Positions 27,971 through 50,344 are shown, counted from the first letter of the stretch. The stretch is DNA of 64,000 nucleotides from an uncultured Candidatus Saccharibacteria bacterium (GCA_964361705.1 CAYIBP010000001.1:26727-90726); one strand, 5' to 3'. A program made the numbers and translations. The notes: generated by a model not told the origin, from the letters alone.

Positions 27971-29437
27971 CTATATCATAGGTTCGGCTTCTTGTGAAAT
28001 TGCTTTCTGTATTTTTTCTTCATTAGAATCTTTGCCTTTGTTGGTGATAGCGGCCTTTTCTTCCGCGCTTCGGATGATAGTAGATTCTTCTTCCTCAATC
28101 AATTTCTTGGCATCTCCTCTTGATATGGCAAACTTTTTGCGTGAAGCCGCGATGATTTCTGCTTTGTATGAAGGATGCGTTGGTGGCAATATGCGCAGAG
28201 TCTCGGCAGAAAATGGATCATAACTTTCTCCATCTATTGTCATTTTTATATATATTTCCCCCACTGCCAGATTGATCATATCCTTCACACCGAAAAGCGG
28301 ATCGAATTCTGGTTTTAGTTTTACAGCGTCCTCCCCCCCCACACGAAATGAAATAATACTTCCAGTATTTCCTAGCACCGCCTGATATATTTTCGGATTT
28401 ATTTGGCCGACATATTGGTGCGCCATGGTCAGATTGAGTCCGTATTTTCGCGCCTCTGACAAAATGTTTTCAAATGTTTGCGTCACGACATTTTGAAACT
28501 CATCAACATATATGTAAAAATCAACACGATCTTTCTCTGGAATATTGGCACGCTCCATACCCGCCTGTTTTATCTTGGTCAAGAACATAGATCCAAAGAA
28601 AGAAGAATTTTCTTCACCTATGCGTCCTTTAGAAAGATTGATAAAGATTATTTTCTTCTCGTTCATCAACTTGCTTATGTCTATGCGGTTTTCCTTTTGC
28701 CCGAAAATATTTCGAAGCAATGGATCAGATAAAAACTGCCCGAGTTTGTTGACGAGCGGTATGATAGCGTCCGTGTCGAACTTTTCAGACCAATCGGCGA
28801 ATTCGATAGCGAAGAATCTTTTCACCATATCGTCTTGGATGTACTCCACCACTTTCTGTCTGTAATTTCTATCCGTCAACATCGAAATCATTCCACGCAT
28901 AGTGGCGTATGGGTAGTCTAGGAGCGCCAGACAAGTAAAACGAAAAACGTGCTCCAAACGCGGAGTCCAGTTGGCACCGAATTGCTTTTGCAAAACTTCG
29001 ATCAAACCCTGCGTCAATTGGAATTTGAACTGCGGATCGACATTCGACAGTGGGTTGAATGATGCGGGATATTCTGTGTCAGATGGATCAATAATGCACA
29101 CATCTTCAATGCGTTCTTTGGGTATATAATCAAGCATTGCCTCTATCACATCACCGTGCGGGTCGATAAGACAAAGACCGTGCCCATAAGTCACATCTTG
29201 ACGAAGCATCAGCTCGAGGAGCTTGGTCTTGCCGACACCAGACTTGCCTATGATATACAAGTGCCTGCGTCTGTCCACGCGCTTGATACCGAAAATAAAT
29301 TTCTTTTCTTCAAGAGCCGCGACATAATTGGTACGCCCGATAAAAGAAACCTCTTCAGGCTTGACCTTGCCAAAAACAGGTAGCTCTGGCGGAGGCGGAC
29401 CGTATTTTATTATCTGCACTCGATTGGGCTTAGACAT
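27971..29437 (-). CDS. soluble P-loop ATPase of the FtsK/HerA/VirD4-TraD (T4CP-like, AAA_10/DUF87-type) superfamily, paralog 1
   Basis: Walker [12 protein letters not shown], Walker [11 protein letters not shown]-terminal TMAHQY...[16 protein letters not shown] block resembling T4 coupling proteins. No TM helices. Stop lies 7 nt from the dnaJ start. Confidence 0.6.
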
Positions 29438-29442
29438 AAATT

Positions 29443-29736
29443 TTAAGAAAACTGCCTCATAAATTTATAAGAAAAAGGTTCTGCGTATTTTTCCAAAATA
29501 TTTCTCTCGTATTTATCCAATTTATCATATCCTAAGATAAAATTCTTGATCACGCTCCATTCTTCCCTGCCCGCTGGTTTGATGTCTCTAAAAGTCAAAA
29601 TCTGATCAACAATACCTAAAGCGCGTGTTTTAGCATTATTAGCAGCTTCTATTTTTTTTGAATCAAAAAAAGAAAAAAGTCTTCCTATTTCAGGATGCAA
29701 ATTTGCCATATAAAAAAGAGAATCTTTCTCAATCAT
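29443..29736 (-). CDS. hypothetical protein
   Basis: 97 aa ORF. 4-nt overlap with upstream ORF and 5-nt spacing to the ATPase suggest an operon. No recognisable motifs. Confidence 0.35.
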   Translation of the reverse strand: MIEKDSLFYMANLHPEIGRLFSFFDSKKIEAANNAKTRALGIVDQILTFRDIKPAGREEWSVIKNFILGYDKLDKYERNILEKYAEPFSYKFMRQFS

Positions 29737-30089
29737 TTCAAATCAATATATTTATGAATAACTTTAGTTCCTTTTTTTATTACTTCCTGATTATCAATAG
29801 ACCGTGTTCTGTTGCCTTGATTCGGTTTAATATTCACCATCGAGTCAAATTCTAAAACACCATCAGGGTTTTCTTCAAAACGAATATTAAAACCCCAAAT
29901 ATTTTCAAATTTTGATCCTGTACTGGTTAGAAGTTCAGAACTTTCAATATGATAATCTCCCCCCAATGCTACCCTTTCTAGTTCTATGTCAACGGTTCCT
30001 TTTATCATCGTGCTATACCAAAATAGGGCCATTTTTTTAACTTCATCTATTGAAACCTTGTGATCTAAAACAATTATCTGTCCGTTCAT
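29733..30089 (-). CDS. hypothetical protein
   Basis: 118 aa ORF, first gene of the apparent 30089->26860 reverse-strand transcription unit ending in dnaJ. No recognisable motifs. Confidence 0.4.
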   Translation of the reverse strand: MNGQIIVLDHKVSIDEVKKMALFWYSTMIKGTVDIELERVALGGDYHIESSELLTSTGSKFENIWGFNIRFEENPDGVLEFDSMVNIKPNQGNRTRSIDNQEVIKKGTKVIHKYIDLK

Positions 30090-30136
30090 ATATAGATGTA
30101 TTTTAACACAAAATCAGGAAGCGCGCTTGCAGGATA

Positions 30137-30186
30137 ATACCAAAGGTGCCCTTTCGCACCACAGTGCGAAAGGGCACCTTTGGTAT
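30137..30186. promoter_or_regulatory. perfect 23-bp-stem hairpin/palindrome ATACCAAAGGTGCCCTTTCGCAC-caca-GTGCGAAAGGGCACCTTTGGTAT
   Basis: Read directly; followed by a 10-bp direct repeat of cctttggtat. Lies between the stop of the GC-rich ORF 30324-30899 and the start of ORF 29733-30089, so it could be a terminator, an operator, or both. Confidence 0.5.
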
Positions 30187-30323
30187 CCTTTGGTATGTCT
30201 TAGTAAATTCTAGTACTTTTGCTTTTCAAAACCATCAAGAAAATCTTGATAACTTTGAAAAGCATAAGAGAAATGAACATTCCTGTTCAAATCTCCTAGC
30301 TTTGATGGTGATGCCCTCCAACA

Positions 30324-30899
30324 TCACTTTTTGGATGAATCGGGCAGAGATCCTACCTTTTCGTCGAATTCTTGAAGCTGAAGCTCAAGGTTAGTTTTTC
30401 CCCTTATAGCTCTTTCCTTCCTTCCCAAAATCTCGATTTGGGCTTCGAGATGTTTTTCTCTCATCCGCAAAAAAGGTTTGTTGTCTTCAACAACCGATTT
30501 TCTCACCTTGTCGACAACAAAAGAGGTGTCCACGGTGGTAGCTTCAGCTTGGGGAGCTGGAGATTCGACTTGAGGGAGCGGAGCTACCGTGGTCAAAGCA
30601 GAGGTGTCGGGAAGGGCTTCGGCTTGGGGGACCGGAGAGAACGTCGAGTCGTGGGAGACCGAGGCTTTGGGGGTCAGAACCTCCTGCGTGGCAAGATTGG
30701 CCCAAAACTGCGGGCAATCCATGGTTCTGCACCATCCTTGGTGAGAGCCATGAGGTGTCGGATTCTGTTCGAATGGGTAGGCCGAGGTGGGCAGGGCGAT
30801 GGAAGAGATTTCGCGTTTCTTTGTCACGGCAAAGAAAAGCAAAGAAAACGCGAGAGCTACCATTCCAATCACTACCCAGAGTAGGGGGTTTTTCCTCAT
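30324..30899 (-). CDS. signal-anchored Pro/Ala/Thr-rich protein with C-terminal coiled coil (GC-rich ORF)
   Basis: N-terminal TM helix (LLWVVIGMVALAFSLLFFAV); repetitive PQAEA-containing linker; coiled-coil tail. About 50% GC, against ~33% background. The overlapping +strand ORF 30372-30884 is Gly/Arg low-complexity and judged less likely. Confidence 0.45.
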   Translation of the reverse strand: MRKNPLLWVVIGMVALAFSLLFFAVTKKREISSIALPTSAYPFEQNPTPHGSHQGWCRTMDCPQFWANLATQEVLTPKASVSHDSTFSPVPQAEALPDTSALTTVAPLPQVESPAPQAEATTVDTSFVVDKVRKSVVEDNKPFLRMREKHLEAQIEILGRKERAIRGKTNLELQLQEFDEKVGSLPDSSKK

Positions 30900-31074
30900 A
30901 AAATTTCTCCTAAAAAGATGGTTTGAAAAAGTTCTGAAACATTGATTAACGCGCTCTTTGCACGAAGCTTAGATTACAAAGAGCGATATGTTTGTAATAT
31001 AGCACACATCTAAGGTAAAAGTCAATAGCTGTAAACCCTTGTAAAATAAGGATTTTAGGGGTATATTTGGGTTT

Positions 31075-31770
31075 ATGAGATTACATAGGTTTATTGGGGA
31101 GTTTGATTTATCTAAAAGTGAGATCGAGATAAAAGACTCGGAAATCATAAAACAGGTCAGAAATGTCTTGCGTTTGAACGTAGGTGATTTTTTAATACTT
31201 TCAGATGGCAAAGGTATGGAAAAAGAAACCACGATCACTTCCCTATCTAAAGAAAACATAATAGTTGAGGTAATAAAAGATATACCTTTAAATGAACCAA
31301 CCAAAAAAGTCAGCTTGTATTTGGCAGTATTGAAGAAAGAAAATTTTGAGCTAGCTGTACAAAAAGCTGTCGAGTGCGGAGTGTCAGAAATAATTCCCAT
31401 CATCACAGAACGCACAGTAAAAACTGGTTTGAATAAAACTCGTTTAGAAAAAATAATAAAAGAGTCCTGCGAACAATCTGGTCGAGGGATACTTCCCCAC
31501 CTTTCTGAAACTATATCTTTCGACGACGCACTACAAGACGGCACGAAAAACGAAGAGAGGGTAGTTTTTCATTTTGTTGATAAACAATATGAATCAAAAA
31601 AGAATACAACAAACGCAAGTATTTTCATCGGTCCTGAAGGTGGTTTTACCGAACATGAAATATCTCTGACTAAAGATACCGGCTATACTGTTACCTCTTT
31701 AGGATCCCTCACCCTCCGCGCTGAGACAGCCGCGATGATAAGCACATACAGAGTAGTACAGAATATATAA
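31075..31770 (+). CDS. rsmE: 16S rRNA (uracil1498-N3)-methyltransferase
   Basis: MRLHRFIGEF N-terminus (PUA-like) and C-terminal SPOUT knot motifs (FIGPEGGFTEHEI...SLGSLTLRAETAAM). Confidence 0.85.
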   Translation: MRLHRFIGEFDLSKSEIEIKDSEIIKQVRNVLRLNVGDFLILSDGKGMEKETTITSLSKENIIVEVIKDIPLNEPTKKVSLYLAVLKKENFELAVQKAVECGVSEIIPIITERTVKTGLNKTRLEKIIKESCEQSGRGILPHLSETISFDDALQDGTKNEERVVFHFVDKQYESKKNTTNASIFIGPEGGFTEHEISLTKDTGYTVTSLGSLTLRAETAAMISTYRVVQNI

Positions 31771-31851
31771 ACACGAAAAACCGTCGAGTACATAATGACA
31801 GCTATAGCGTCTATTATGTTATTATCATTTTAGTTTAAAATCTAATATCTT

Positions 31852-33522
31852 CTAATAAACCTCCTGTTGGTAACAACTCTCGCAGTACACTATCTCTTTG
31901 TTCTCTGGTGAATAATTTGTATTTATTTCCTTTTTGCATTTATCACACTGTCGCTTCCAGAATTTATATGGTCCACGAATATTTATCCTTTCTTTATGTC
32001 TGCAATAAAAACATTTGCGCGGAATAGGCAGGATCATCTTTCTGTAAAACAAGAATTCTTGCGCTGTAATTTTATAATTCCTCTTGCAATCTATACAGGC
32101 AAGTACTTCAGCCAAAATACCATCCGTCACATCTTTTATATGGTCTGGTATTTGTTCTGATTGCACTGTTTCTTTGCCTTCCGTTTTCTGCAGATCATCC
32201 TCCCATCTAAAACCTTGCGCCAGCACTTCTTCTTTTGTCATCGGCATATTGTCCTGCCCTATCGTTTCATTATAAGCAAAGGGAGCAAGATCTGGGGGCA
32301 TCATTAAGCCATATAGATTTTTTGATTTTAATTCTTGTATGATTAGATTTTTTAACTTTTCATATTCTTCCTTGCTGTATTCTTTGTTGAATATGGCATA
32401 TTTAGTGTTTTTAAGCGCATCACATCCTACACAATCTTGGCAATTTGTAGTGTAAAAACAGTAAAGCATATTATTGCCATGCTCAAGACCATAAGAACCT
32501 ATAATATTGCTCGAATGCCCCACTGCCACTACTTCGAGCAATCTTTCGCAGGAGGTACCATAGCCTATGGTACCATAAGAATCTTTAATTTCTTTTGAAG
32601 AAAATAAATATCGGCAATCCTCACCTCTTGCCACCTCGAAAGAATCTTTGACGTTTTTACAGTTAAAAAGATAATCTCCAGAGGAATCTATACTTTTTGG
32701 ATCATTATTTTCTTTTACTGGATATTTCAAACATAAATCTTTAAACTCTTTTTTAAAAGATTTCGTTTTTGAGAAACTTCCTTGTATTTCTTTGACTTTG
32801 TTCCAGTATTCTTCTTGGGTATATGGTTCATTTAGAAAGTGATAAGACTTATTGTTTAAATTTACACAACCAAAGCAATTCATCACTCCCCTGCAATTTT
32901 GGACAAAAGCGCTATCCACCGATCCAAAAACATTTTTTCCCCATAGAATGCCCGAAGATTCTTGAACATTGACACTTTCATAACATCGTTCGGTTTTTGT
33001 GGCAAAATACATATCCGAACAATCCTTGATATCTTTCGCTCCTCTAGTATAGAGAGTTTCTTCGGCAGGCCCGGTATTGAAAACGAGATAGCAATTCTTG
33101 CATCCGCCTGCCATATTCGTATATTCGCTGTTTTGATTTGGTCCGTATCCAGAAGAAAGATATGTGGTGATCTTCGGTACTTTTATCAAAAATTCTTTCA
33201 TCTGCTCTAAAAAAGAATGGCTTGGGTCATAATCCATGGCGTAATCTTTTGGATCCCATTTGTCGGAATAAAAACATTCGTGACAATATATCTTGTAAGG
33301 AGATTTTGGATTGTACATCGATATTATGCTCTTGTCGCATAAATCACAACGTCTGCCTGAATAAAGAGTGGTTTCGTTTCTCCACAGCGCACGCATTTTA
33401 AATCTGCAAGACGGACAAACCTTTGGGTTCGGCACTTGCATCTTTTCATAAAAAGAAATTTCGTCCTGATCTAGAAAAAAATCAGTGAGGCATTTAGTGC
33501 ATTTTTTCGTTTCTGTACGCAT
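31852..33522 (-). CDS. cysteine-rich multi-zinc-ribbon protein, novel family, paralog A
   Basis: 556 aa, >45 Cys, no signal peptide. N-terminal module CxxC...FYEKMQVPNPKVCPSCR...RCDLCDKS...YCHECF. C-terminal module of the same pattern (CIDCKRNY...FYRKMILPIPRKCFYCR...QCDKCKKE...YCESCYQQEVY). Internal repeats C-x2-C-x-G-C...Y-x-KEEY. Paralogous to 35576-37288, 37255-39012 and 41611-43377. Confidence 0.6.
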   Translation of the reverse strand: MRTETKKCTKCLTDFFLDQDEISFYEKMQVPNPKVCPSCRFKMRALWRNETTLYSGRRCDLCDKSIISMYNPKSPYKIYCHECFYSDKWDPKDYAMDYDPSHSFLEQMKEFLIKVPKITTYLSSGYGPNQNSEYTNMAGGCKNCYLVFNTGPAEETLYTRGAKDIKDCSDMYFATKTERCYESVNVQESSGILWGKNVFGSVDSAFVQNCRGVMNCFGCVNLNNKSYHFLNEPYTQEEYWNKVKEIQGSFSKTKSFKKEFKDLCLKYPVKENNDPKSIDSSGDYLFNCKNVKDSFEVARGEDCRYLFSSKEIKDSYGTIGYGTSCERLLEVVAVGHSSNIIGSYGLEHGNNMLYCFYTTNCQDCVGCDALKNTKYAIFNKEYSKEEYEKLKNLIIQELKSKNLYGLMMPPDLAPFAYNETIGQDNMPMTKEEVLAQGFRWEDDLQKTEGKETVQSEQIPDHIKDVTDGILAEVLACIDCKRNYKITAQEFLFYRKMILPIPRKCFYCRHKERINIRGPYKFWKRQCDKCKKEINTNYSPENKEIVYCESCYQQEVY

Positions 33523-33526
33523 AATT

Positions 33527-35536
33527 TTATTCCAATATCTTTCTCAGCACATCTTCAGGCACTTCTTTTATTTTTGTCTTGGGTGTTTCTTCTTCTTTTA
33601 TTTCTTCTTTTTTTATATTTTTAGATTCTATAAAACTTTTCAATTTATCCATATCTTCTGCGCTCGCTGCGCGATCTTTTGATGATTTTTCTTTTTTAAT
33701 TATACTAGGTGCTTGTTCTTCTTTTAAAATACTCAGGGGCACGGGTGCATGCACAGCAGGTCTCACAAGGGTAACGAGGTCAGACTTTTTTTCTACTTCC
33801 TCTGATTTTACCTTTGATTCTTCTGCGATAGTTTTATTTAAAATATCCCTTAGAGCTGGGTTGCCATTTTCTGTACGAGCTATTTTTAGTTTGTTACCAG
33901 TAAACACCTTCTTCATTCTTGAAAATACACCCTCTCGCACAGGCGCTATATTCCTCGTCGTACTGTCTCTTTCTTCTTCTTTCTTGGGCTCGAATTCTAT
34001 ACCCAGATCGGCCAGTGGTTTATAAAACTTAGCATCATCTCTTTTGTTTTCTCTTGAAAAACCCGTAGCGACTTTTAATTCCCCTGTCTTTATTTTATCC
34101 ATACAATCCTTACAATACACAGGCCTGCCTGGCGTAGGCTTGAAAGGCACTGTGGTTTCTTTTTTGCAATTAGAACAAATGATCGGGAATTTCTCTCCGG
34201 TCATATTATCTCCATCATTGCCTAGAGACATTCCGCTCCAATCATTGATCTCTTGCTCCACTACTTCTCTTGGTCTGCAATACAGCGCGCGCGAAGACCT
34301 AATCACTTCTTGTTCTATCTCCTTGTTACCCGACTTTACTAAAGGCGATAAGGTCTTGGCTGAAAAAGGTCTCGATGTCGTACCATCAATCATAAGCTTC
34401 AAATAAATTTTGAAATTCGGTAAGTTTAAAATATCTTGCGGTGTGAATTCTGGCTCAAATTCTTTTTCCAAAAACTTTGCATCATCAGCGCCGACTCTGA
34501 AAACAATCATCGTGCCCACGTTGCCAAATACTGCATCTCGAACACTAGAATTCTTATCAGCTATCAACTGTGCCGTGTACTGATGGGCCACAGTCAAATT
34601 GAGTCTATATTTTCGAGCTTCAGACAAAATACCTGCAAAAGACTCCGTAACGAAATTTTGGAATTCATCAACATATAGATAGAAATCTTTTCTCTCGTCT
34701 TCGGGTATGCGCACACGTTCCATAGCGGCGAGCTGAATCTTGGTAATTATCATTCCCCCTAAAAGCGAAGAATTGTCTTCACCTATGCGCCCTTTTGATA
34801 CATTTACAAGAAATATTTTTTCTTGATTCATTAAATCAAAAATATCCACTGTGCTTTTAGCCTGACCAACGATATTTCTGATGATAGAGGTAGAAAGAAA
34901 CTGCCCAACTTTGTTTTGTATCGGCGCAATGGCTTCATTTCTAAATTTATCCTGCCAAGCTTCGTATTCGTGAATCCAGAATGCTTTAATAACAGGGTCC
35001 TTCAAGTTTGCTATTACCTTTTGACGATAATCTTTATCCACCAAGAGCCTCGGTATACCGAGCAATGTCGAACCTGGAGTATCAAGCAGTGCCAAGATAG
35101 CATTGTTCAAAATATATTCCATTCTGGCGCTCCAAGCATTTGCCCAAATCTTTGTGAAAATACCCATCAAACCCGAAGCTACGAGATGTTTATATTTTGG
35201 ATCCAAAAGTTCGAGAACATTAAAACCTATATGATACTCCGTATCAGCAGGATTGAAATACACCACATCTTTCATTCGATGTGGAGGAATAGCCGAGAGT
35301 ACTGCTTCGACATTTTCTCCGTGAGGATCAACCATACACACACCATCGCCATTTTCGATGTTCTGAATAATCATGTTGAACATCAGGGCGGATTTACCTG
35401 TACCGGATTTTCCAAGTATGTACACATGCTGACGGCGATCTTTACGCTTTATGCCAAAGAGAGTATTCTTGTCCCTATAAGTAGTCTGACCTACATAAGT
35501 AATCTCTTTATTTTTTGGGATTCCCAAGAGTTCCAT
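33527..35536 (-). CDS. soluble FtsK/HerA/VirD4-TraD-like P-loop ATPase, paralog 2, with C-terminal zinc ribbon and K/E-rich tail
   Basis: Walker A ILGKSGTGKSA, Walker B YLYVDEFQNF, LTVAHQY...GNVGTMIVFRVGADDA block. Extra C-terminal CSNCKKETTVPFKPTPGRPVYCKDC zinc ribbon followed by a ~200 aa lysine/glutamate-rich tail. No TM helices. Confidence 0.6.
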   Translation of the reverse strand: MELLGIPKNKEITYVGQTTYRDKNTLFGIKRKDRRQHVYILGKSGTGKSALMFNMIIQNIENGDGVCMVDPHGENVEAVLSAIPPHRMKDVVYFNPADTEYHIGFNVLELLDPKYKHLVASGLMGIFTKIWANAWSARMEYILNNAILALLDTPGSTLLGIPRLLVDKDYRQKVIANLKDPVIKAFWIHEYEAWQDKFRNEAIAPIQNKVGQFLSTSIIRNIVGQAKSTVDIFDLMNQEKIFLVNVSKGRIGEDNSSLLGGMIITKIQLAAMERVRIPEDERKDFYLYVDEFQNFVTESFAGILSEARKYRLNLTVAHQYTAQLIADKNSSVRDAVFGNVGTMIVFRVGADDAKFLEKEFEPEFTPQDILNLPNFKIYLKLMIDGTTSRPFSAKTLSPLVKSGNKEIEQEVIRSSRALYCRPREVVEQEINDWSGMSLGNDGDNMTGEKFPIICSNCKKETTVPFKPTPGRPVYCKDCMDKIKTGELKVATGFSRENKRDDAKFYKPLADLGIEFEPKKEEERDSTTRNIAPVREGVFSRMKKVFTGNKLKIARTENGNPALRDILNKTIAEESKVKSEEVEKKSDLVTLVRPAVHAPVPLSILKEEQAPSIIKKEKSSKDRAASAEDMDKLKSFIESKNIKKEEIKEEETPKTKIKEVPEDVLRKILE

Positions 35537-35575
35537 ATGTGTATATTATACAAGAAAAACAAGCTTTTACCATAT

Positions 35576-37288
35576 TTAGTATATTTCCTTCTGATAGCAA
35601 CTTTCACAATACACTATTTCTGGTCTATCTAGTGAATATGAGGTTTCAAATTCGTTAGAGCACCTTTCCTTCATGCATTTCCGATGCCATAGTTTTAAAG
35701 GATTGCGCGATTTCATCCTCCTATCATTCCGGCAGAAAAAACAATTCCTAGGCAAAGGTACCTGCATTCTCTTATAAAAAAGCAATTCTTGATTTGTAAT
35801 CTTAAAATTACGATCACAAGACCCACAAACCAGAACTTCGTTTATAATGTCTTCCACAACATCATTGATATCATCTGGTATGTTTTCTTGTGACATCGTT
35901 TCTTTGCCTACGGTACGTTTGAAATCATTCTGCCATTTCAAGCCACGAGCCTCTGCCTCGCTCTGTGTAAGAGGAAACATTGAGAGGGCCTCTGTTTCGT
36001 TGTAATTAAAATAAGACATTCGAGCGGGGAAAAATTCTCCCCACTCTTTTGTTTTTTTCATTAGCTCAATGATCTCATTTTTTAGTTTAAAATATTCTTC
36101 TTTTGTGTATCTTTTATTCAAAATTACATACTCTCCTTTTTTGACACTCGCACATCCAAAGATATTGTTGCACGAATGGCAATTGTCACAATAAGCAATA
36201 TCTTTATCCTTCCATGAATAAATACTAAAAAGATTATTATAAGATTGGTCTGGTGTTGCCGCCTCATAAGAATATTCCACCTCTCCACCACCGGACAAAT
36301 CGTAACAATCCTTAAACTTTACACCATTGTAGACGAATCTTGATTCCTCGCTAAACGGGGCAAAGAAAGAATCTCTGGTGTGTTTTGCCTCTATCAGATC
36401 ATTCCCCGTACAATTCAGACAATTACGAAACATCGCAAACCGACGCGGATATTTTAAAATAAATTCCTTAAACTCCTTCTCAGCCCTCTGCCAACCAGTA
36501 AAAGTATTCAAGGCGTAAGATTTCAAAATATCTTCATACTCTTCCTTGCTGTATTGTTTGTTACGAAAATAATATCTCTTGCTTCTCAAGCCAAAAGACA
36601 TAAAACAATCGCTACAATCACGACAGTCATAACAAAAATCACAGTTTTGTAGCGAATTACCATATATCACATATCTGCACTTATAACACTTATCAATCAA
36701 AATTGACTCGTACATGAATTCATTAAAATCATAAGCACCAAGACAATCGCACAGTTCCCTGCCCTCATTTAGAAAACAAGAATACATCACGCTCTCTAAT
36801 TTCCAAGAAATAAAAGTCATGTAACAATTTTTAGAAAATGCAACATCGTGACAATAAGGACTATTCATACTGGAAATACCATCATCGTTCATCAGGGCGA
36901 TCTTTGGCACTTTGTGATTTAGTTCCATGTACTGTTCAAAAAAAGATTTGTTCGGATCAAAATCCTGTCCGTATTTGTATGGATCCCAGTTGTCGTTCCA
37001 GAAACACTTGACGCAATAAACGACCAAATCAGAGTCAGGTTTGTAAATAGAAAGAGTGCTCTTGCCACACAGATCGCACGAACGATTGTACAGATTGTAT
37101 GTATTCCTCCAAGCCAACCTGCGTTGACTTCTACAATCTGGACAAAAAGTCGGGGGTGGCACTTTGATTTTTTCATAAAACCCAAAATCGTCAGATTCTA
37201 TAGTGAAATCTTTTTTACAGTTTTGACAATTGCGGGTTTCGGATTGCATATATTTTAATATACCTCTTTTTTGTAACAATCTTCGCAA
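35576..37288 (-). CDS. cysteine-rich multi-zinc-ribbon protein, novel family, paralog B
   Basis: 570 aa, same architecture as paralog A: N-term CQNCKKDF...FYEKIKVPPPTFCPDCRSQRR...CDLCGKS...YCVKCF; C-term CGSCDRNFKI...FYKRMQVPLPRNCFFCR...CSNEFETSYS...VYCESCYQKEIY. Confidence 0.6.
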   Translation of the reverse strand: MRRLLQKRGILKYMQSETRNCQNCKKDFTIESDDFGFYEKIKVPPPTFCPDCRSQRRLAWRNTYNLYNRSCDLCGKSTLSIYKPDSDLVVYCVKCFWNDNWDPYKYGQDFDPNKSFFEQYMELNHKVPKIALMNDDGISSMNSPYCHDVAFSKNCYMTFISWKLESVMYSCFLNEGRELCDCLGAYDFNEFMYESILIDKCYKCRYVIYGNSLQNCDFCYDCRDCSDCFMSFGLRSKRYYFRNKQYSKEEYEDILKSYALNTFTGWQRAEKEFKEFILKYPRRFAMFRNCLNCTGNDLIEAKHTRDSFFAPFSEESRFVYNGVKFKDCYDLSGGGEVEYSYEAATPDQSYNNLFSIYSWKDKDIAYCDNCHSCNNIFGCASVKKGEYVILNKRYTKEEYFKLKNEIIELMKKTKEWGEFFPARMSYFNYNETEALSMFPLTQSEAEARGLKWQNDFKRTVGKETMSQENIPDDINDVVEDIINEVLVCGSCDRNFKITNQELLFYKRMQVPLPRNCFFCRNDRRMKSRNPLKLWHRKCMKERCSNEFETSYSLDRPEIVYCESCYQKEIY

Positions 37289-39012
37289 TAAAGCATGTTA
37301 TACCCTTCTTCTAGGTTAAACACAGACTCTATCTTTTTATTGCATTTTTTACAAGAAGTCTGATATTTTTTGGCAGTCAAAAACATGGCGAGTTCTTCTT
37401 GCATGCGTATCATCGGATGCGTGTCCGGTAGCGGAATTTTCATTTTTCTTAGAAATTGAAGTTCAGATTGGATAATCCTAAACGGTCTGCCTGTGACTTT
37501 ACACTCTATGGCTTTTTCCACAATATCATCATTCACATCATCTATATATTTTGGTATATCTGCATTCGTCAGTATTTGTTCGTTTGATATATTGGTTTCT
37601 GGCTCCTCGGCTATATAACCACCTAGTTTTATAATTTGTTCCTCACTCAAAGGGAAAACAATTTGGCTCAATGAAAAATTGTATGCTTGAGCAGAAAATT
37701 CCATACCTAAACCATCGCCATACTCGCCTATCTTTAACATTTCATATTTAATTTTATCCAGTAGTTTATAATATTCTTCTGCAGAATATTGTTTATTCAA
37801 AATACAATAGGATTTATCCCTTAAACCAAAACACATAAAACAATTGCTCAAATTACTGCAATTAAAAACAAATTCGCAATCAAGAAGTATTTTTGAATGT
37901 GAAGAAAATTTCACATTGCTGGAATGATTGCCAGTATTTATAGTGCTATACAACAAACTGGAATGCCCTCCAGAAAACAGCGTATCCATAGAATCATTCA
38001 GAAAAAAACTTCCATCTATATGCCGTACATTTTCTGTGTCTTTTGAAGCAGTAGCATCAAAAATATTTTTAGCATCTCTGAGCAACACACCATTACAATT
38101 TTCTATGTTTGTATTAGCAGAAGCATTTATTGGCGAAGATTTAACGAGCAACCAAAATTTATCTTCCATATCTTTTATTTTCTCTCGCGACAGAGGATAA
38201 ATGGATTTGATAAAATCTTTGTATTCTTTTTCCGAAAGTTGTTTATTCCAAACACAATATTTCGCATTTCTAAGGTTCACTGAACCAAAACACTTGTCAC
38301 AGTTTCGACATCCAAATAAAAATATACTATCTGTGCAATCTTTTGAAAAATAAACAAAAGAAGATTTATAAATATGATCAGAATAAACACTACCATAAAC
38401 ATGATCAGATTCATCTATAACTCTGGAATCCATGCCGTCTTTGACTTTATTCATTGAATTGCAATACCAAAGATTTTCAGAAAAAAAGCAACCTGTCACA
38501 TAATAACCATTCTTTAGGTTTCTACCGCCATTTGAATATTCACTATTTATTGTCGAAGGATCTTTGTTTAGAAAAGATGGCATGGGAAAAACTTTTCGAA
38601 GCGCAAAAAGTATAGCCAAAGGACTTGCGCCGTCCTTGTACTCCAAGCCAAAAGAAAAAGCATCGAAACTATCACCCATAAAATATTTATAATCATAAAC
38701 AGGAAAAGGACACTCTTTCGGAAATATAGATATCATTGATTCGTTGTGGTTAGATACATTGCAAGATCTTTTAAAAAGTCGGGAGCTATCTTTTTGTGTT
38801 AATCTTCTGATTCTCCTACAAGTAGGACAAAAGTTTGGAGCTGGAACTCGAAGCATTTTTAAAAATTCTATATCGCCTTTTGATATTTCAAACTCTCCCT
38901 CGCAGTGTATATGCAAACCCGCCCATCTGCAAACACGAGAGTGAGGAGTAAGATTTGCCAAAATTTCGTCTAGCAACTTATCAAATCTGGGTGTTTTTGA
39001 CACTGATTGCAT
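37255..39012 (-). CDS. cysteine-rich multi-zinc-ribbon protein, novel family, paralog C (most divergent)
   Basis: 585 aa; internal CRNCDKCFG...KEY and CSNLSNCFMCFGLRDKSYCILNKQYSAEEY repeats; C-terminal ...KKCNKKIESVFNLEEGYNMLYCEDCYKKEVY. N-terminal module degenerate (HxxC...CPTCRR). Confidence 0.55.
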   Translation of the reverse strand: MQSVSKTPRFDKLLDEILANLTPHSRVCRWAGLHIHCEGEFEISKGDIEFLKMLRVPAPNFCPTCRRIRRLTQKDSSRLFKRSCNVSNHNESMISIFPKECPFPVYDYKYFMGDSFDAFSFGLEYKDGASPLAILFALRKVFPMPSFLNKDPSTINSEYSNGGRNLKNGYYVTGCFFSENLWYCNSMNKVKDGMDSRVIDESDHVYGSVYSDHIYKSSFVYFSKDCTDSIFLFGCRNCDKCFGSVNLRNAKYCVWNKQLSEKEYKDFIKSIYPLSREKIKDMEDKFWLLVKSSPINASANTNIENCNGVLLRDAKNIFDATASKDTENVRHIDGSFFLNDSMDTLFSGGHSSLLYSTINTGNHSSNVKFSSHSKILLDCEFVFNCSNLSNCFMCFGLRDKSYCILNKQYSAEEYYKLLDKIKYEMLKIGEYGDGLGMEFSAQAYNFSLSQIVFPLSEEQIIKLGGYIAEEPETNISNEQILTNADIPKYIDDVNDDIVEKAIECKVTGRPFRIIQSELQFLRKMKIPLPDTHPMIRMQEELAMFLTAKKYQTSCKKCNKKIESVFNLEEGYNMLYCEDCYKKEVY

Positions 39013-39024
39013 AAAGATATCATA

Positions 39025-39057
39025 GCAAAAAACCTCGTAAATTACGAGGTTTTTTGC
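39025..39057. terminator. intrinsic terminator hairpin gcaaaaaaCCTCGTaaattACGAGGttttttgc downstream of dnaK
   Basis: Perfect 14-bp stem (including A/T extensions) with T-run, read from sequence. Lies between the dnaK stop (39073) and the start of Cys-rich paralog C (39012) on the reverse strand. Confidence 0.55.
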
Positions 39058-39072
39058 TGAAGTTTGAGATTT

Positions 39073-40977
39073 TTATTTTTTATCCTCCCCTTCTTTAAAT
39101 TCCACATCGTGAACTTCTGGTGGTTGTTCTTCGGCAGTAGTCCCCGTATTAGGATTTGCCTGTCCTGCTTCAGCATTAGCTTTCTGCATGGCTTCGCCTA
39201 TTTTTGACATTTCAGCAGAAAGCTCTTCGGTTGCTTTCTTTATTTTCTCTCCATCAGTACCATCTTTTACTTCTTTCAAACCAGCGATCTTTTTATTCAC
39301 ATTTTCTTTTACATCTGCTGGAAGTTTTGCCTCATTGTCTTTTAGAGCTTTCTCCGCAGTGTACATCATCATCTCTGCAGTATTTTTCACATCAACCAAC
39401 TCTCTCTTTTTCTTGTCTTCCTCTGCGTGAACCTCTGCATCTTGCTGCATTTTCTTTATATCTTCATCTTTGAGTCCAGAGCTTGCCTCTATTCTGATAG
39501 ATTGAGTTTTACCGGAAGCTTTTTCCATGGCTTTCACATTCAATATTCCATTTGCATCTATGTCAAAAGTTACTTCGACTTGAGGCATACCACGTGGAGC
39601 AGGTGGTACACCGTCTAGCACAAAGCGACCGAGGGATTTGTTGTCGGACGCCATTGGACGCTCACCTTGAACTACGTGTATCTCTACAGAAGTCTGATTG
39701 TCTGCGGCGGTAGAAAATACTTGAGATTTTGAAGCAGGGATTGTAGTATTTTTTTCTATCAACTTTGTAGCCACACCTCCCAATGTCTCAATACCCATAG
39801 ATAGAGGTATGACATCCAAGAGCAAGACATCTCGTACATCTCCTGCTAGCACTCCACCCTGGACAGCCGCGCCGAGCGCCACGACTTCGTCTGGGTTGAT
39901 AGACATATTTGGTGTTTTACCAAAAAGATTTTTCACAGCTTCCACCATCATCGGCATTCTGGTCTGACCTCCGACCATGATGATCTCGTTTATTTCATTC
40001 ATTTTGAAAGGAGAAGCTTCCACAGCTCTCTTTGTAATCTCAATAGATCTATCCACGAATTCTTTTGCCAAAGATTCCAATGTCGCGCGAGACATCTTGA
40101 GTAACAAGTGCTTTGGCCCTTCGGCATCAGAAGTAATAAAAGGAATATTTACTTCCGCTTCCATCGTGGTAGAGAGTTCATGTTTCGCCTTTTCAGCTGC
40201 TTCTTTCAGTCTCTGTAATGCGAGTGAATCTTTACGCACATCCACGCCTGATTCCTTTTTGTACTCATCTGCTATCCAATCAATGATCTTGCTATCTATG
40301 TCTTCACCACCCATATGACTGTCGCCATCAGTAGATTTTACTTCGATTACATCTTCTCCTATTTCAAGCACCGACACATCGAATGTTCCACCACCGAAGT
40401 CATATACCACAATCTTTTCATTTTTCTTTTTATTAAAACCATAGGCAAGCGCTGCCGCGGTAGGCTCGTTTATTATTCTCTTTACATCAAGACCGGCTAT
40501 TTGTCCGGCATCTTTTGTCGCCTTTCTTTGCGCGTCGTTGAAATACGCAGGCACAGTGATCACCGCTTCGGTAATCTTAACACCAAGCTTTGCTTCTACA
40601 TCAGCTTTTATTTTCTGCAAGATCATCGCGGAAACTTCTTCAGGACGATAAAACTTGTCGAGCATTTTTACTTTTACACCACCATCTTCACCCGCTTCTA
40701 TTTCGTAAGGAGCGCTCCCTTTGTCTTTTTGAACTCCTGGATCGCTGAACAGATGACCCATAAAACGCTTGATGCCGTAAATGGTATTTTTAGGATTCGT
40801 GACTGCTTGCCTCTTTGCCACTTGTCCCACCACACGACCTCCGCTTTTTGTAATAGCAACTATCGAAGGCGTGGTCCTGTTGCCCTCGACATTTTCAATA
40901 ATCTTTGGCGCGCCACCCTCAATGATAGACACCGCCGAATTTGTTGTACCCAAATCTATTCCTATTATTTTACTCAT
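39073..40977 (-). CDS. dnaK: chaperone DnaK (Hsp70)
   Basis: [33 protein letters not shown] motifs and C-terminal lid with EEVD-like acidic tail. Confidence 0.95.
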
Positions 40978-41017
40978 ATTCTTAATATATTATTAATAAT
41001 GCTTGATAATTAAAGAT

Positions 41018-41053
41018 TTAGCAGGCTTTTCGCGGTCGCAAAAAACTTGCTAA
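41018..41053. promoter_or_regulatory. imperfect CIRCE-like palindrome TTAGCAggcttttcgc-ggtc-gcaaaaaacTTGCTAA in dnaK upstream/divergent promoter region
   Basis: Outer half-sites TTAGCA / TGCTAA match CIRCE half-sites (TTAGCACTC-N9-GAGTGCTAA), but spacer and inner arms differ. Located 41-76 bp upstream of the dnaK start. Confidence 0.35.
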
Positions 41054-41080
41054 AAACAGTATATATGATAAGATATCCAC

Positions 41081-41614
41081 ATGTCAAGCAAATCTGGATA
41101 TTCCAGTAAAATACTTAAAATATTGGCTGAAAAACCGGCACTTTCTCTGGAAGCTGTAAAAGAAAACTCGAACAAAAAAGACAAAAGAGAAGAGTATTCT
41201 TTAAACAGATCTGTCAAAAGTCTCACTGAAGCCGGCTGTGTTGAAATAATACGCTCAGAACACAAGGATTATTTACGACTCACTAAAAAAGGAAAAAATA
41301 GATTGAATAGTTTGCGTATCGGAGACACAGATGCCTTGGTACCACAAACTTGGGATGGGTTTTGGCGAATTGTGATATTGGATTTACCCGAAGACAGAAA
41401 AAACGAACGCGAATCTTTGCGATACCTTTTGAAAAAAGCAAACTTCGTTTGTGTGAAAAATACTGTTTGGATTTCGCCACACCCATACGAACATCTTTTT
41501 ACAAATATAAAAAAAGATTTAGGACTCTCTACAGAAATGATGATAATAACGACAAACAACCTAGATGAAGAAACTCATAAAGCATTCCTCAAAGAGATAG
41601 GTGGGCAATCTTAA
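41081..41614 (+). CDS. uncharacterised winged-helix + Cas2/VapD-like fold protein (paralog of 4789-5349)
   Basis: 177 aa; WDGFWRIVILDLPEDRKNERESLRYLLKKANFVCVKNTVWISPHP aligns with the C-terminal block of 4789-5349. Divergently transcribed from dnaK. Confidence 0.45.
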   Translation: MSSKSGYSSKILKILAEKPALSLEAVKENSNKKDKREEYSLNRSVKSLTEAGCVEIIRSEHKDYLRLTKKGKNRLNSLRIGDTDALVPQTWDGFWRIVILDLPEDRKNERESLRYLLKKANFVCVKNTVWISPHPYEHLFTNIKKDLGLSTEMMIITTNNLDEETHKAFLKEIGGQS

Positions 41615-43377
41615 TACACTTCCCTTTTATAACATTCTTCGCAATAAACTTTTTCGGTTCTGTCTGGAGAATACGGAGTTTCAAATTCGTTTGAGCATTT
41701 TTGATCGTGTCCGTGAGTGGTATTATCGCAAACACAAACTCTGTGCCATAAATTCCTAGGCGTGCGAAGCTTTTGTCTCTCTAAATATCTGCAATCAGGA
41801 CAAAATTCTGGTATCGGAACACTCATTCTTTTGTATAAATCGAATTCAGCTAAAACAATGTTGTAATTTTTGCTACATTTTTTGCAAGCAAGAACTTCTT
41901 TTGTTATTGTATCTGGCGTATTTGAAATACTATCAGGCAAAGTCTTTAAAGTTTCTTTACCAAAAGTACCTCCCAAATCATCTGCCCATTTAAAACCCTT
42001 CTCTAAAGTGTCTTCTTTAGTCAGTGGCATATATACATTGCCCTGCGTTTCGTTGTAACAAATAGGTGAATACTTCGGCGGGAAAAATTCTCCCCATTCG
42101 CCTGTATTCTTCATATGTTCTTTTATCTTTTGTACAAGTTTTTCATATTCTTCTTTGGTGTATTGCTTGTTGAATATACAATAAGAATTCTTTTTCAAGG
42201 CTACGCACCCGAAAAGATTTTGACCGTTGTGACAAGAATCGCAATAATACGCAAAAGTATTGTCGTAGGACAAATTGCAAGAAATCAGGTTAGATGAGCG
42301 CACTATCGCGTGAGAATTATACACGAGTTCTGTTTGTAGCCCCACATGATACACATCCATACAATCTTTTGTATCTGGAGACATCGCAGCAAAATGCACA
42401 TTTTCAGCTCGCTCTATATCAAACACCCTTTTGGAATTCTTGGAATTTAGCACAATATTGCCTGTGCAATCCACCGACTTATCTATCACAGCACACCTGT
42501 GCACCGCCTTTTGTTTTATCATATTTATATACTCCGCGTATAATTTATCTCGCGTAGCTCTGGAACCCAGATACATTTCTTCCATTTTTTTCTTATAGTC
42601 TTCTCTCGTGTATTGTTCATTATTTATACAGTAACTCTTATTGCGCAAGTTGTAACACATAAAACAATTTGAGCAATTCCTGCAATCATAAGAATAAAAA
42701 CAATCAGAACAATCCTTTAAAAACTTTCCGTACTGGCAATTGTAAAGATTCTCTCCATCTATACATTCATAACACATCGAGATATTCATAGGGTTGTAAA
42801 GGCAATCCACGCAGTCTCTGCCCTTCTCCCAAGTATTTGTACAGTAGAGCATATTTTCGCAATTGAACATGCAAAAAGACAGGTAGCAATCTTTATTGTC
42901 GCCAGCGTGATTTGTATAGTCAGAGTTAATAGTATTCTTATTGAGCAAAGCTATCCTCGGACACTCTAGTAACAGATCATAAAACTGTTCAAAAAATGGT
43001 TTTGTAAAATCAAAATCGCGCCCATAGTCAAGCGCGCTCCATTTGTCGCTCCAAAAACACGAAGTGCAAAAAACCTTAAAAGGCTTATCTGGAGAATACA
43101 CTGTCACTATAGACTTGTTGCATAAATTGCACACACCCCTATACAGCCTCCTTTCATTCCTAAAAGCATATCTGATCTGTTGCCTGCAATCAGGGCATTT
43201 GTCCGGCACCGGCACATCCATCTTTTTATAAAAAGCAAAATGATCCGGCTCGATGGTAAAGCTAGCCTTGCAACTCTGACAAGTCGCGGACACTGAGTTT
43301 GACGAATGTGTTTTAGTTTCCTGTTTCTCCATTGTATTCAAAAACATTGACGCGTGCTGGACGCAAAACTCTTTCAC
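41611..43377 (-). CDS. cysteine-rich multi-zinc-ribbon protein, novel family, paralog D
   Basis: 588 aa; N-term CQSCKASF...FYKKMDVPVPDKCPDCR...CNLCNKS...FCTSCF; C-term CKKCSKNYNI...LYKRMSVPIPEFCPDCR...CSNEFETPYS...VYCEECYKREVY. The 5' end overlaps the grpE 3' end, so the true start is probably an internal Met (MEKQETK). Confidence 0.6.
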   Translation of the reverse strand: MKEFCVQHASMFLNTMEKQETKTHSSNSVSATCQSCKASFTIEPDHFAFYKKMDVPVPDKCPDCRQQIRYAFRNERRLYRGVCNLCNKSIVTVYSPDKPFKVFCTSCFWSDKWSALDYGRDFDFTKPFFEQFYDLLLECPRIALLNKNTINSDYTNHAGDNKDCYLSFCMFNCENMLYCTNTWEKGRDCVDCLYNPMNISMCYECIDGENLYNCQYGKFLKDCSDCFYSYDCRNCSNCFMCYNLRNKSYCINNEQYTREDYKKKMEEMYLGSRATRDKLYAEYINMIKQKAVHRCAVIDKSVDCTGNIVLNSKNSKRVFDIERAENVHFAAMSPDTKDCMDVYHVGLQTELVYNSHAIVRSSNLISCNLSYDNTFAYYCDSCHNGQNLFGCVALKKNSYCIFNKQYTKEEYEKLVQKIKEHMKNTGEWGEFFPPKYSPICYNETQGNVYMPLTKEDTLEKGFKWADDLGGTFGKETLKTLPDSISNTPDTITKEVLACKKCSKNYNIVLAEFDLYKRMSVPIPEFCPDCRYLERQKLRTPRNLWHRVCVCDNTTHGHDQKCSNEFETPYSPDRTEKVYCEECYKREVY

Positions 43378-43966
43378 CCAGCTTGTAACCCTTTTGAATC
43401 ACTACGGAAATTTTATGATTGTCTTCTTGTTTATCGGTAGCAGTAATATCCATAGATTGATGAAGATTTGGATCAAAATCCTCGCCCACACGACCTATCT
43501 CTTTCACACCATATTCTTCAAAAATAGTATTGAGTTGAGAGTAAATATATTCCACTCCCTTGCGCCAATTTTGATCTACTTTTTCCCATGCTTCTTTGTT
43601 GGCAAAAGCCATATTAAAACTATCAATCACGGACAAAAATCTGGTCAACATGCGCTCACGCATAGCTTCTGAGAAGACTGCTTTTCTGTCTTCCTCTTGT
43701 TTCTTGAAATTCGCAAAATCTGCCCGCTCTTTCTGCCAACCTGTCAAATATTCTTCTTTTTCAGATTTTACCTGTTTCAGATCAGCTCGCAATTTCTTGA
43801 TAGTCTTTTTCAAGTCTTCTTCGCCGTCTTCATTGAACTCGAATTCGAGCACCTCTGTATCATCAGAAACACCAGAGGCGCCATCATCTGTTTCTTTCCC
43901 CTCTCCCGCGGGAGAAGAGCTTTGTATTTCATCGTCTGTTATTTCCTTAGAATCTTCGTCTGCCAT
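43313..43966 (-). CDS. grpE: nucleotide exchange factor GrpE
   Basis: 217 aa: acidic N-terminus, long paired helix, C-terminal beta domain (…HQSMDITATDKQEDNHKISVVIQKGYKLGERVLRPARVNV). Confidence 0.9.
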   Translation of the reverse strand: MADEDSKEITDDEIQSSSPAGEGKETDDGASGVSDDTEVLEFEFNEDGEEDLKKTIKKLRADLKQVKSEKEEYLTGWQKERADFANFKKQEEDRKAVFSEAMRERMLTRFLSVIDSFNMAFANKEAWEKVDQNWRKGVEYIYSQLNTIFEEYGVKEIGRVGEDFDPNLHQSMDITATDKQEDNHKISVVIQKGYKLGERVLRPARVNVFEYNGETGN

Positions 43967-43975
43967 ACAAGCATA

Positions 43976-44022
43976 TTAACACAAAAATCCCTCTTTTTTC
44001 AAGAGGGATTTTTGTGCGTTAA
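43976..44022. promoter_or_regulatory. extended CIRCE-like inverted repeat TTAACACAAAAATCCCTC-N9-GAGGGATTTTTGTGCGTTAA immediately upstream of grpE
   Basis: Read directly. 18/20-bp arms with 9-nt spacer (ttttttcaa). Outer and inner bases follow CIRCE (TTAGCAC..CTC-N9-GAG..GTGCTAA), with an 8-bp AAAAATCC/GGATTTTT insertion in each arm. Starts 10 bp upstream of the grpE ATG. Confidence 0.55.

Positions 44023-49912: not shown

Positions 49913-49935
<23 letters not shown>
47065..49935 (-). CDS. secreted multidomain surface protein A (Ig/FN3-like repeats + lipase-like alpha/beta-hydrolase domain), frameshifted near 3' end
   Basis: Signal peptide MSQLPKTKNLLSTFLLLIFILSPLQVFA. Lipase-like nucleophile elbow LIGHSNGGLVIKALIQKL and FVATPQVGTPEGF. 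Homologous to B and to the C-terminal ~1100 aa of C. ORF terminates prematurely after …VIQVGGWGGKDLGGDRLYC* owing to a +1 G in a G-run relative to B. Confidence 0.6.

Positions 49936-50344
<409 letters not shown>

Follow-up and report, generated by a model that had tools for sequence, protein, structure and literature searches.

The 64,000-nucleotide stretch of chromosome analysed here (the window; CAYIBP010000001.1:26727-90726) comes from an ultra-small bacterium of the Patescibacteria, or candidate phyla radiation (CPR), and in it the Hsp70 genes grpE, dnaK and dnaJ are interleaved with genes for two VirD4-like ATPases and four cysteine-rich (Cys) proteins, CysA to CysD. The region is best explained as a vertically inherited, Patescibacteria-specific two-part module of ATPases and Cys proteins that one lineage has interleaved with its Hsp70 genes. 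In the direction of transcription, the minus-strand genes are ordered grpE, CysD, dnaK, CysC, CysB, ATPase-2, CysA, a Pro-rich open reading frame (ORF), DUF5674, a small ORF named s97, ATPase-1 and dnaJ. The ORF map and domain scans agree with the gene order and identities proposed in an earlier note made from the sequence alone (the sequence-only reading), and with its description of an Hsp70 gene set split by paralogous, unrecognized genes:

43313-43966, minus: grpE (Pfam GrpE, 3e-38)
41611 to about 43332-43377, minus: CysD, full ORF of at most 588 aa with 44 cysteines, overlapping the grpE 3′ end
41081-41614, plus: PaaX-like regulator, a winged helix with a Cas2-like PaaX_M domain (Pfam PaaX_M, 3.6e-20), divergent from dnaK
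39073-40977, minus: dnaK (Pfam HSP70, 1.5e-243)
37255-39012, minus: CysC, 585 aa with 24 cysteines, a divergent paralog
35576-37249, minus: CysB, about 557 aa from the ATG at 37249, 35 cysteines, an accessory paralog
33527-35536, minus: ATPase-2, 669 aa, an ATPase core with a C-terminal CxxC-x17-CxxC finger and a long charged tail
31852-33522, minus: CysA, 556 aa with 31 cysteines, the conserved core member
31075-31770, plus: rsmE, 16S rRNA methyltransferase family (Pfam Methyltrans_RNA, 4.6e-39; PUA_4)
30324-30899, minus: Pro-rich ORF, 191 aa, one N-terminal transmembrane helix (hydropathy 2.64 at residue 7)
29733-30089, minus: DUF5674 protein, 118 aa (Pfam PF18924, 4.8e-21)
29443-29736, minus: s97, 97-aa ORF, 5 nt upstream of ATPase-1
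27971-29437, minus: ATPase-1, 488 aa, soluble VirD4/VirB4/DptH-like P-loop ring ATPase
26860-27963, minus: dnaJ (Pfam DnaJ, DnaJ_C and DnaJ_CXXCXGXG, the last at 1.4e-14), closing the DUF5674-s97-ATPase-1-dnaJ run

Cys-rich proteins and ring ATPases

The four Cys proteins are paralogous over their full length, with mutual identities of 27-40% (tblastn E values from 1e-52 to 1e-128), as had been proposed. None of them reaches a Pfam, NCBIfam or PADLOC family, and a match to a characterized family, sought as a refutation of their status as unrecognized proteins, was not found. Both termini score below threshold against the finger families PF23477, PF13451 and TIGR04272 (17-20 bits, against cutoffs of 24-36); CysA gives only sub-threshold zf_Tbcl and zf_Tbcl_2 matches, and CysC matches none of the CxxC-x17-CxxC or treble-clef finger models. 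Despite these scores, the CxxC spacing of the fingers is conserved. A search of the PDB with the Cys profile returned marginal LIM-domain-like matches to the C-terminal fingers (E about 1e-3), and no Cys protein matches the DnaJ-type CXXCXGXG domain (PF00684) at E ≤ 0.1.

For CysA, an AlphaFold2 model computed from 48 sequences is confident, with a predicted local distance difference test score (pLDDT) of 85.8 and a predicted template modelling score of 0.87. From the N terminus it comprises a finger pair (C8/C11/C36/C39 and C59/C62/C80/C83), a helix, a first beta-solenoid, a helical hairpin, a second beta-solenoid, a helix, a highly conserved and mostly non-regular linker (residues 403-472) and a second finger pair (C476/C479/C504/C507 and C526/C529/C547/C550). 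Each pair consists of a CxxC-x24-CxxC and a CxxC-x17-CxxC finger, and the N- and C-terminal pairs are internal duplicates. Among 256 family members, which have a median of 35 cysteines, the distances between central cysteines are nearly all multiples of 3 (1730 at a distance of 3, 1608 at 9 and 1494 at 12) and off-register distances are rare (27 at 2 and 63 at 4). This register, together with a hydrophobic periodicity of 12, suggests that the solenoids are built of 12-residue coils with up to four cysteines each, of which C210-x2-C213-x2-C216-x2-C219 is a conserved example. They may represent a new metal-binding fold with four inward-facing cysteines per coil. The antifreeze protein of Tenebrio resembles them in its 12-residue coil period and regularly spaced cysteines, but its cysteines lie at i and i+6, whereas those of the Cys family lie at i, i+3, i+6 and i+9. 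Hydropathy reveals neither a transmembrane nor a signal segment in the Cys proteins, whose isoelectric points are neutral (6.5-7.3); because they appear to be cytoplasmic and lack a signal peptide, metal binding, not disulfide formation, would be plausible in the solenoids.

In the alignment, CysC is seen to have lost the majority of its ligands in zinc fingers 2 and 3. We considered and rejected the possibility that it is a pseudogene: a related locus (L051, 1040-2815) carries an orthologue with 60% identity, which indicates that CysC is a maintained subtype. Only about 55% of the family have a complete finger 2, and finger-poor subtypes thus appear to be maintained.

A scan of 1.84 billion cluster representatives placed 5,628 of them in the Cys family at E ≤ 1e-3, of which 2,301 also pass E ≤ 1e-30 (50%-identity clusters). 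Their named sources are overwhelmingly Patescibacteria, with product names of 'hypothetical' or 'zinc-ribbon domain containing'. A set of 79 genome loci anchored on Cys genes holds 281 family ORFs, in tandem arrays of up to 12 genes; the largest include 12 copies within 21.7 kb (L007) and 12 copies in about 40 kb of the single contig that contains both L037 and L059. The family was not found in IMG/VR viral contigs, and our literature searches found no published description of it; the Southlakia transposon-sequencing paper makes no mention of VirD4, zinc or DnaK.

ATPase-1 and ATPase-2 are 46% identical (E 2e-138) and both exceed the Pfam gathering scores of TrwB_AAD_bind, T4SS-DNA_transf, DUF87 and TraG-D_C, in keeping with the earlier claim of two paralogous VirD4/HerA-like ATPases. 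Each contains an FtsK/HerA-type P-loop domain with Walker A and B motifs that scores above family thresholds. Neither has a hydrophobic segment that could serve as a membrane domain, the maximum 19-residue Kyte-Doolittle hydropathy being 0.92 for ATPase-1 and 1.22 for ATPase-2. The finger families that match the Cys-protein termini weakly, below gathering scores, match ATPase-2 strongly: its CxxC-x17-CxxC finger scores 52.5 bits for zf_Tbcl_2 and 53.8 bits for TIGR04272, above thresholds, and this zinc-finger type is common to ATPase-2 and the Cys proteins. In the ATPase-2 orthologues displayed, an LGIEF motif comes after the finger, and a charged tail ending in EDVLRKILE closes the protein. 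ATPase-1 orthologues (P0272-P0390) share a near-invariant N-terminal IIKYxPPPPELP, predicted to be disordered, and a C-terminal E-P-[LM]-I. By their sequence, these terminal peptides may be short docking motifs for partners.

The AlphaFold2 model of the ATPase is moderate (pLDDT 67.7). It places a helical block (residues 135-259) between core strands, and VirB4, the defence ATPase DptH and TrwB match it equally well; the ATPase-1 sequence alone found no match in the PDB. Across relatives, ATPase-1 is 83-88% identical, DnaK 78-85% and DnaJ 66-79%, and in the closest relative, locus L080, the identities are 95% for ATPase-1, 92% for DnaK, 84% for DnaJ, 84% for ATPase-2 and 77% for CysA. That ATPase-1 is better conserved than DnaK is a sign of a core role in the cell.

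The window ATPases are very probably among the orphan VirD4 homologues of Quinonero-Coronel et al. 2025 (PMC12102498). That paper counts 5,713 VirD4-like homologues in 2,918 Patescibacteria genomes, roughly two per genome, only 148 of them near virB4, and leaves their function open. The passages searched give no account of conserved neighbours; the links of the ATPases to Cys arrays, PF26449, CutA1, DUF5674 and Hsp70 genes come from the present analysis.

Recurrent neighbours and conservation of the locus

The ATPase is the commonest identifiable neighbour of the Cys genes, occurring within 10 kb at 31 of the 79 loci, compared with 13 each for dnaK and dnaJ. Among 42 ATPase genes of related loci, 19 are directly followed by a Cys gene, with a gap of at most 8 nt in 7 of these 19; gaps of 1-8 nt suggest translational coupling. 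This adjacency recurs in differing surroundings, in records named Paceibacterota, Jorgensenbacteria, Staskawiczbacteria, Abawacabacteria and Peribacteria. Conversely, we sampled 80 metagenome loci chosen for their ATPase. Of the 54 ATPases with enough sequence, 18 are followed by a Cys gene no more than 4 kb downstream, and 23 are preceded by a PF26449 gene within 3 kb upstream. The pairing is thus frequent but not obligate, since two thirds of the sampled ATPases have no nearby Cys gene, and the functional module suggested by the sequence-only reading holds as a co-occurrence of families, not as a constant partnership. No full ATPase-Cys fusion was found; the zinc finger alone is shared.

In other CPR lineages the ATPases can lie in a wider conserved block of secD, secF, a protein with sigma70_r4 and HARE-HTH domains, PF26449, a 172-aa membrane protein, one or more ATPases, sometimes CutA1, and a Cys array. 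The secD-secF-PF26449-ATPase block was seen at 14 listed loci and at others. The PF26449 label is a precomputed annotation of the sequence collection, in which the block proteins are labelled 'hypothetical'; the PF26449 and 172-aa membrane proteins have no match in our local Pfam or NCBIfam libraries, and family f18 none in NCBIfam. As a separate protein PF26449 has one membrane helix, and at three loci (L041, L065 and L066) it is fused to the ATPase, the fused copies beginning after the helix. In Rosetta-stone terms, such fusions tie the motor to a protein that, when encoded separately, has a membrane helix. Very long ATPases at five further loci (885-1164 aa) could be additional fusions. CutA1, of a divalent-ion tolerance family, is embedded at arrays at 7 loci and was found at seven more, at three of which it directly follows the ATPase, and small ArsR-like helix-turn-helix (HTH) genes lie at arrays at 6 loci. 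The recurrence of CutA1 and ArsR-like genes between ATPase and Cys genes or inside arrays hints at a metal link. The window contains no homologue of PF26449, f18, SecDF, CutA1 or the ArsR-like proteins.

The arrangement seen in the window is itself conserved. Seventeen loci share the order grpE, Cys gene(s), PaaX, dnaK, ATPase, Cys gene(s), rsmE, ATPase, dnaJ, and 20 keep the split Hsp70 arrangement. The synteny check suggested at the outset therefore speaks for conservation in relatives and against a fortuitous insertion, and 'split apart' is a fair evolutionary description of the Hsp70 genes here. The lineage concerned is named Nomurabacteria or Paceibacterota in the records, and the arrangement is absent from most others. 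Within the lineage, grpE is succeeded by a Cys gene, dnaK usually by ATPase-2, and ATPase-1 by dnaJ. Six loci have a Cys gene directly after grpE, in some cases 50-54% identical to CysD, and dnaJ directly follows 8 of the 42 ATPase genes. The surrounding gene order is also conserved, from ribosomal protein S9 through grpE to dnaJ, arginase and cysS.

Relatives differ in the content of the arrays. In L080, a close relative as judged by its ATPase-1, CysC and CysB are missing between dnaK and ATPase-2 and DUF5674 is degraded, differences which suggest that array content turns over fast around a stable core. This core consists of ATPase-2 with CysA and of s97 with ATPase-1 and dnaJ; the accessory Cys copies vary. 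L080 also has a 340-aa ORF (6843-7865) separating CysA from rsmE, at a point where a short spacer is all that the window shows. It has a hydrophobic N-terminal segment with a nearby cysteine and looks lipoprotein-like by eye; no cassette protein matches it (tblastn).

Of the smaller genes, rsmE occupies the equivalent position in five relatives. The Pro-rich ORF has no Pfam or NCBIfam match, and its C terminus is weakly similar (30% identity) to an equivalently placed 198-aa ORF of L080. DUF5674 adjoins Cys arrays at four loci, and a PDB sequence search with it was empty. The s97 ORF likewise recurs beside arrays and is 82-89% identical to its counterparts in L005 and L080, with no match in Pfam, NCBIfam or the PDB.

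The rest of the window is ordinary chromosome, including scpA, scpB, cyclophilin, aminoacyl-tRNA synthetases, dnaB, recR, rpoA and transporters. The G+C fraction of the cassette (0.34-0.42) matches the remainder, and with a base composition equal to its flanks the cassette does not look like a recent insertion. We rejected a recent insertion or mobile island, as composition, conservation and context are all contrary to it: there is no relative in IMG/VR, the G+C fraction is flank-like and the order is kept among housekeeping genes (the comparison covered IMG/VR and left out plasmid collections).

Elsewhere in the window, at 47065-61766 on the minus strand, lie genes for three paralogous giant proteins of 956, 980 and 2,367 aa with LCAT-like alpha/beta-hydrolase (lipase) domains, the largest of which additionally carries a subtilase and a PKD domain. 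Between these genes lies an IS200/Y1 transposase (53436-54110). The giant proteins could be secreted and serve to attack the envelope of a host.

Transcription units and the tie to Hsp70

The sequence-only reading regarded the cassette as tightly coupled to the Hsp70 genes and took CIRCE-like operators (CIRCE, controlling inverted repeat of chaperone expression) as a sign of expression linked to heat shock. We read the junctions directly. The ATPase-1 stop lies 7 nt from the dnaJ ATG, as stated there, and CysD overlaps the grpE 3′ end, also as stated, by at least 17 nt, because no possible start is available downstream of 43332; the CysD start is probably the ATG at 43332 or 43347. The reported overlap of the CysA start with the ATPase-2 stop proved instead to be a 4-nt spacer before the CysA ATG. 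Further, the CysC stop is 5 nt from the CysB ATG, which places the true CysB start at 37249, and the DUF5674 stop and s97 start overlap by 4 nt. The following elements lie between the genes:

43980-44016: inverted repeat upstream of grpE, 16-bp perfect arms flanked by A/T runs
41087-41058, minus: strong dnaK promoter-like site, TTGACA, 18 nt, TATACT
41018-41053, minus: 36-bp palindrome TTAGCAAG-N6-GCGACCGC-N6-CTTGCTAA, just downstream of the promoter-like site
39024-39058: hairpin just after dnaK, a 17-bp perfect inverted repeat flanked by an A run and a T run, intrinsic-terminator-like
30137-30186: 23-bp perfect inverted repeat within the 234 nt that separate the Pro-rich ORF from the DUF5674 operon

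The hairpin after dnaK, with its 17-bp perfect arms and T run, substantiates the terminator that had been noted there. The repeat at 43980-44016 is probably the terminator of the gene upstream of grpE; ending that gene, it suggests that grpE opens a new transcription unit. The hairpin at 30137-30186 is probably a terminator or boundary element, and it is far stronger than the other terminators of the region. From the junction spacings and the terminator-like hairpins, the likely transcription units are grpE-CysD; dnaK alone; CysC-CysB-ATPase-2-CysA; the Pro-rich ORF; and DUF5674-s97-ATPase-1-dnaJ.

The proposed co-regulation through CIRCE-like operators found no support. Canonical CIRCE (TTAGCACTC-N9-GAGTGCTAA) has no match in the whole window with up to 3 mismatches, and a terminator precedes CysC. 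The one palindrome has CIRCE-like outer hexamers with a spacing that differs from CIRCE, is located upstream of dnaK alone and occurs once in the window, with 0 copies expected by chance. It is kept in the PaaX-dnaK spacer of 7 other genomes, and the TATACT −10 promoter that precedes it is likewise conserved in these spacers; the PaaX-like gene is divergent from dnaK in eight relatives. The palindrome can be considered a candidate operator for dnaK, and perhaps also for the divergent PaaX-like gene, but not for the cassette. From its sequence and placement, the palindrome with the PaaX-like protein looks like a CPR-specific heat-shock operator and repressor pair that would replace HrcA-CIRCE; the window contains no hrcA. 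The window holds a second PaaX_M paralog (winged helix with Cas2-like domain) at 4789-5349 on the minus strand, which makes the PaaX-type regulator multi-copy in this genome; the dnaK palindrome was not found a second time.

These results weaken the specific functional tie to Hsp70 that had been suggested. The link to heat shock is confined to the neighbourhood and two tight junctions, grpE-CysD and ATPase-1-dnaJ. Chaperone genes are missing within 10 kb of most Cys arrays in the 79-locus set, where dnaK and dnaJ are the rarer neighbours and the ATPase the commoner, and in other CPR classes arrays of up to 12 Cys copies have no nearby chaperone gene. In the distant relatives L056 and L072, no more than one ORF separates dnaK from dnaJ, and the module is found several kb farther downstream. 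With canonical CIRCE absent, a strong terminator after dnaK and the interleaving absent from most lineages, the module appears to be autonomous. The chaperone link is secondary: the module is independent of nearby Hsp70 genes and is not under the dnaK operator.

An ATPase-client module and its rivals

Of the two functions that had been suggested, the evidence leans towards the second, an autonomous ATPase-driven module, though not towards a mobile or defence island. In the mechanism that we propose, one part of the module would be the two paralogous ATPases, soluble rings from the VirD4/VirB4/DptH/HerA branch within the FtsK-HerA superfamily, and the other the Cys proteins, cytoplasmic and of about 560 aa, as clients or adaptors of the ATPases. 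Hexamers of the ATPases would use ATP to act on the Cys proteins, recognizing them by their conserved zinc-finger caps. In its likeliest version the action would be a coupling-protein-like hand-over to a membrane translocon, and hence export, possibly with delivery into a host. CysD with GrpE and ATPase-1 with DnaJ would probably be co-translated, an arrangement that would be sensible if proteins with 24-44 cysteines, presumably metal-loaded, were demanding Hsp70 clients. We advance the interaction of ATPases and Cys proteins and their export as a tentative proposal, derived from sequences and their neighbourhoods, with a probability of roughly one in three.

The comparison with the coupling proteins of type IV secretion systems (T4SS), such as VirD4, TrwB, TraD and DotL, is instructive on both sides. 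The helical block of the moderate model may correspond to the all-alpha domain inserted in their nucleotide-binding domain, although VirB4 and DptH match the model equally well, and the gene order resembles theirs, an ATPase gene followed by tandem diverged paralogs with conserved terminal modules; in Bartonella, virD4 is followed by tandem bep effector genes. The PF26449 protein with its membrane helix, just upstream or fused in other CPR lineages, extends the likeness. Unlike coupling proteins, the window ATPases have no N-terminal transmembrane domain and no accompanying virB4, relaxase or T4SS gene, and they are extremely conserved and encoded on the chromosome, not on a plasmid or an island. 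The Cys proteins differ from coupling-protein substrates in being zinc-finger and solenoid proteins with no known translocation signal.

Several observations weigh against the proposed mechanism. The Cys proteins have no recognizable secretion signal, and they look tightly folded and presumably metal-bound, a kind of protein that makes a poor type IV substrate. The window ATPases have no membrane partner, and no T4SS or relaxase domain is present in the annotated ORFs of the 64 kb. The model of the ATPase is matched by DptH and VirB4 as well as by TrwB, and two thirds of the ATPases in the metagenome sample have no Cys gene within 4 kb. CysA orthologues in equivalent positions are fairly conserved (55-77% identity), unlike typical fast-evolving effectors. 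Finally, according to PMC12102498, the coupling-protein homologue of Southlakia was not essential, whereas its T4SS was.

One alternative, which we consider unlikely, is a cytoplasmic nucleic-acid system for defence or DNA processing, in which the ring ATPase would translocate on DNA like DptH, HerA or FtsK and the solenoid paralogs, with their zinc-finger caps, would serve as exchangeable sensors or adaptors with DNA, RNA or foreign proteins as their ligands. Treble-clef and zinc-ribbon fingers frequently bind nucleic acids, and the variable-copy arrays, with paralog identities of 30-40%, recall the diversified sensors of conflict systems. HTH regulators also recur nearby (TrmB, ArsR-like, PaaX-like, and sigma70_r4 with HARE-HTH), and the best PADLOC match of the ATPases is mad8 (1e-11 to 1e-14), with HerA and DndH weak. 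However, PADLOC found nothing among the cassette neighbours, whose Pfam matches are unrelated to defence. The DptF/DptG, NurA, Sir2, methylase or MADS genes that accompany DptH/DndH, HerA and mad8 are not nearby, and no nuclease or other effector adjoins ATPase-1. Defence islands are usually patchy and mobile, whereas ATPase-1, better conserved than DnaK, lies in a fixed housekeeping context that also sets it apart from the DptH, HerA and mad8 ATPases. The neutral isoelectric points of the Cys proteins, the absence of viral relatives in IMG/VR and the absence of a compositional anomaly are further points against this alternative.

A second alternative, quite improbable in our view, is a proteostasis or metal-stress module that would work with DnaK, DnaJ and GrpE, the Cys proteins being redox- or zinc-sensing holdases or zinc buffers and the ring ATPases unfoldase or disaggregase partners of Hsp70. 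In the Nomurabacteria/Paceibacterota lineage, every gene of the Hsp70 system adjoins a module gene, and the module is within about 10 kb of dnaK or dnaJ at five differently arranged loci (L013, L056, L072, L099 and L131). The richness in cysteines, 24-44 per protein, and the CutA1 and ArsR-like genes inside arrays, at 7 and 6 loci of the genome set, would also fit. Against it stand the many arrays with no chaperone gene within 10 kb, a dnaK operator common to no cassette gene, the separate terminator of dnaK, the failure of the Cys proteins to match the DnaJ-type domain and the lack of CysC and CysB beside dnaK in L080. FtsK/HerA-type rings are not known to act as disaggregases.

The remaining alternative, that there is no functional module and that unrelated housekeeping genes stay together through the frozen gene order of small genomes, has a small chance of being right: the conserved synteny from ribosomal protein S9 to cysS and the two thirds of ATPases with no adjacent Cys gene speak for it, but the ATPase-Cys adjacency recurs in lineages with different surroundings, spacers as short as 1-8 nt suggest that translation is coupled, one type of zinc finger is common to both families, and for 33% of ATPases a Cys gene lies no more than 4 kb downstream, against a chance rate that we guess, as a rough and uncomputed estimate, to be below 10%.

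For the preferred reading, an ATPase-client module, a more far-reaching version is doubtful: the Cys arrays would be the missing cargo of Patescibacteria, recruited by the orphan ATPases through the finger caps and exported onto or into the host through the type IV apparatus reported to be essential in Southlakia, or through another membrane partner, for instance PF26449, with Hsp70 keeping them transport-competent. The motor superfamily and the orphan status of the VirD4 homologues of Patescibacteria are already known; in the literature searched, the Cys family, its cysteine-lattice solenoid architecture and its pairing with the ATPases, PF26449, CutA1, DUF5674 and, in the lineage of the window, Hsp70 genes are undescribed so far.

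Patescibacteria make up a large share of bacterial diversity and are epibionts with tiny genomes. Some of them give at least 20 kb, by our estimate roughly 2-3% of the genome, to tandem copies of the Cys family. The regular cysteine lattice in a 12-residue solenoid is of structural interest by itself, and linking the Cys family, PF26449, CutA1 and DUF5674 gives the orphan ATPases a concrete, testable set of partners. If the proposal is true, the Cys proteins would be candidates for the cargo of the type IV machinery, which is reportedly essential in the one cultured species tested, or of another translocon.

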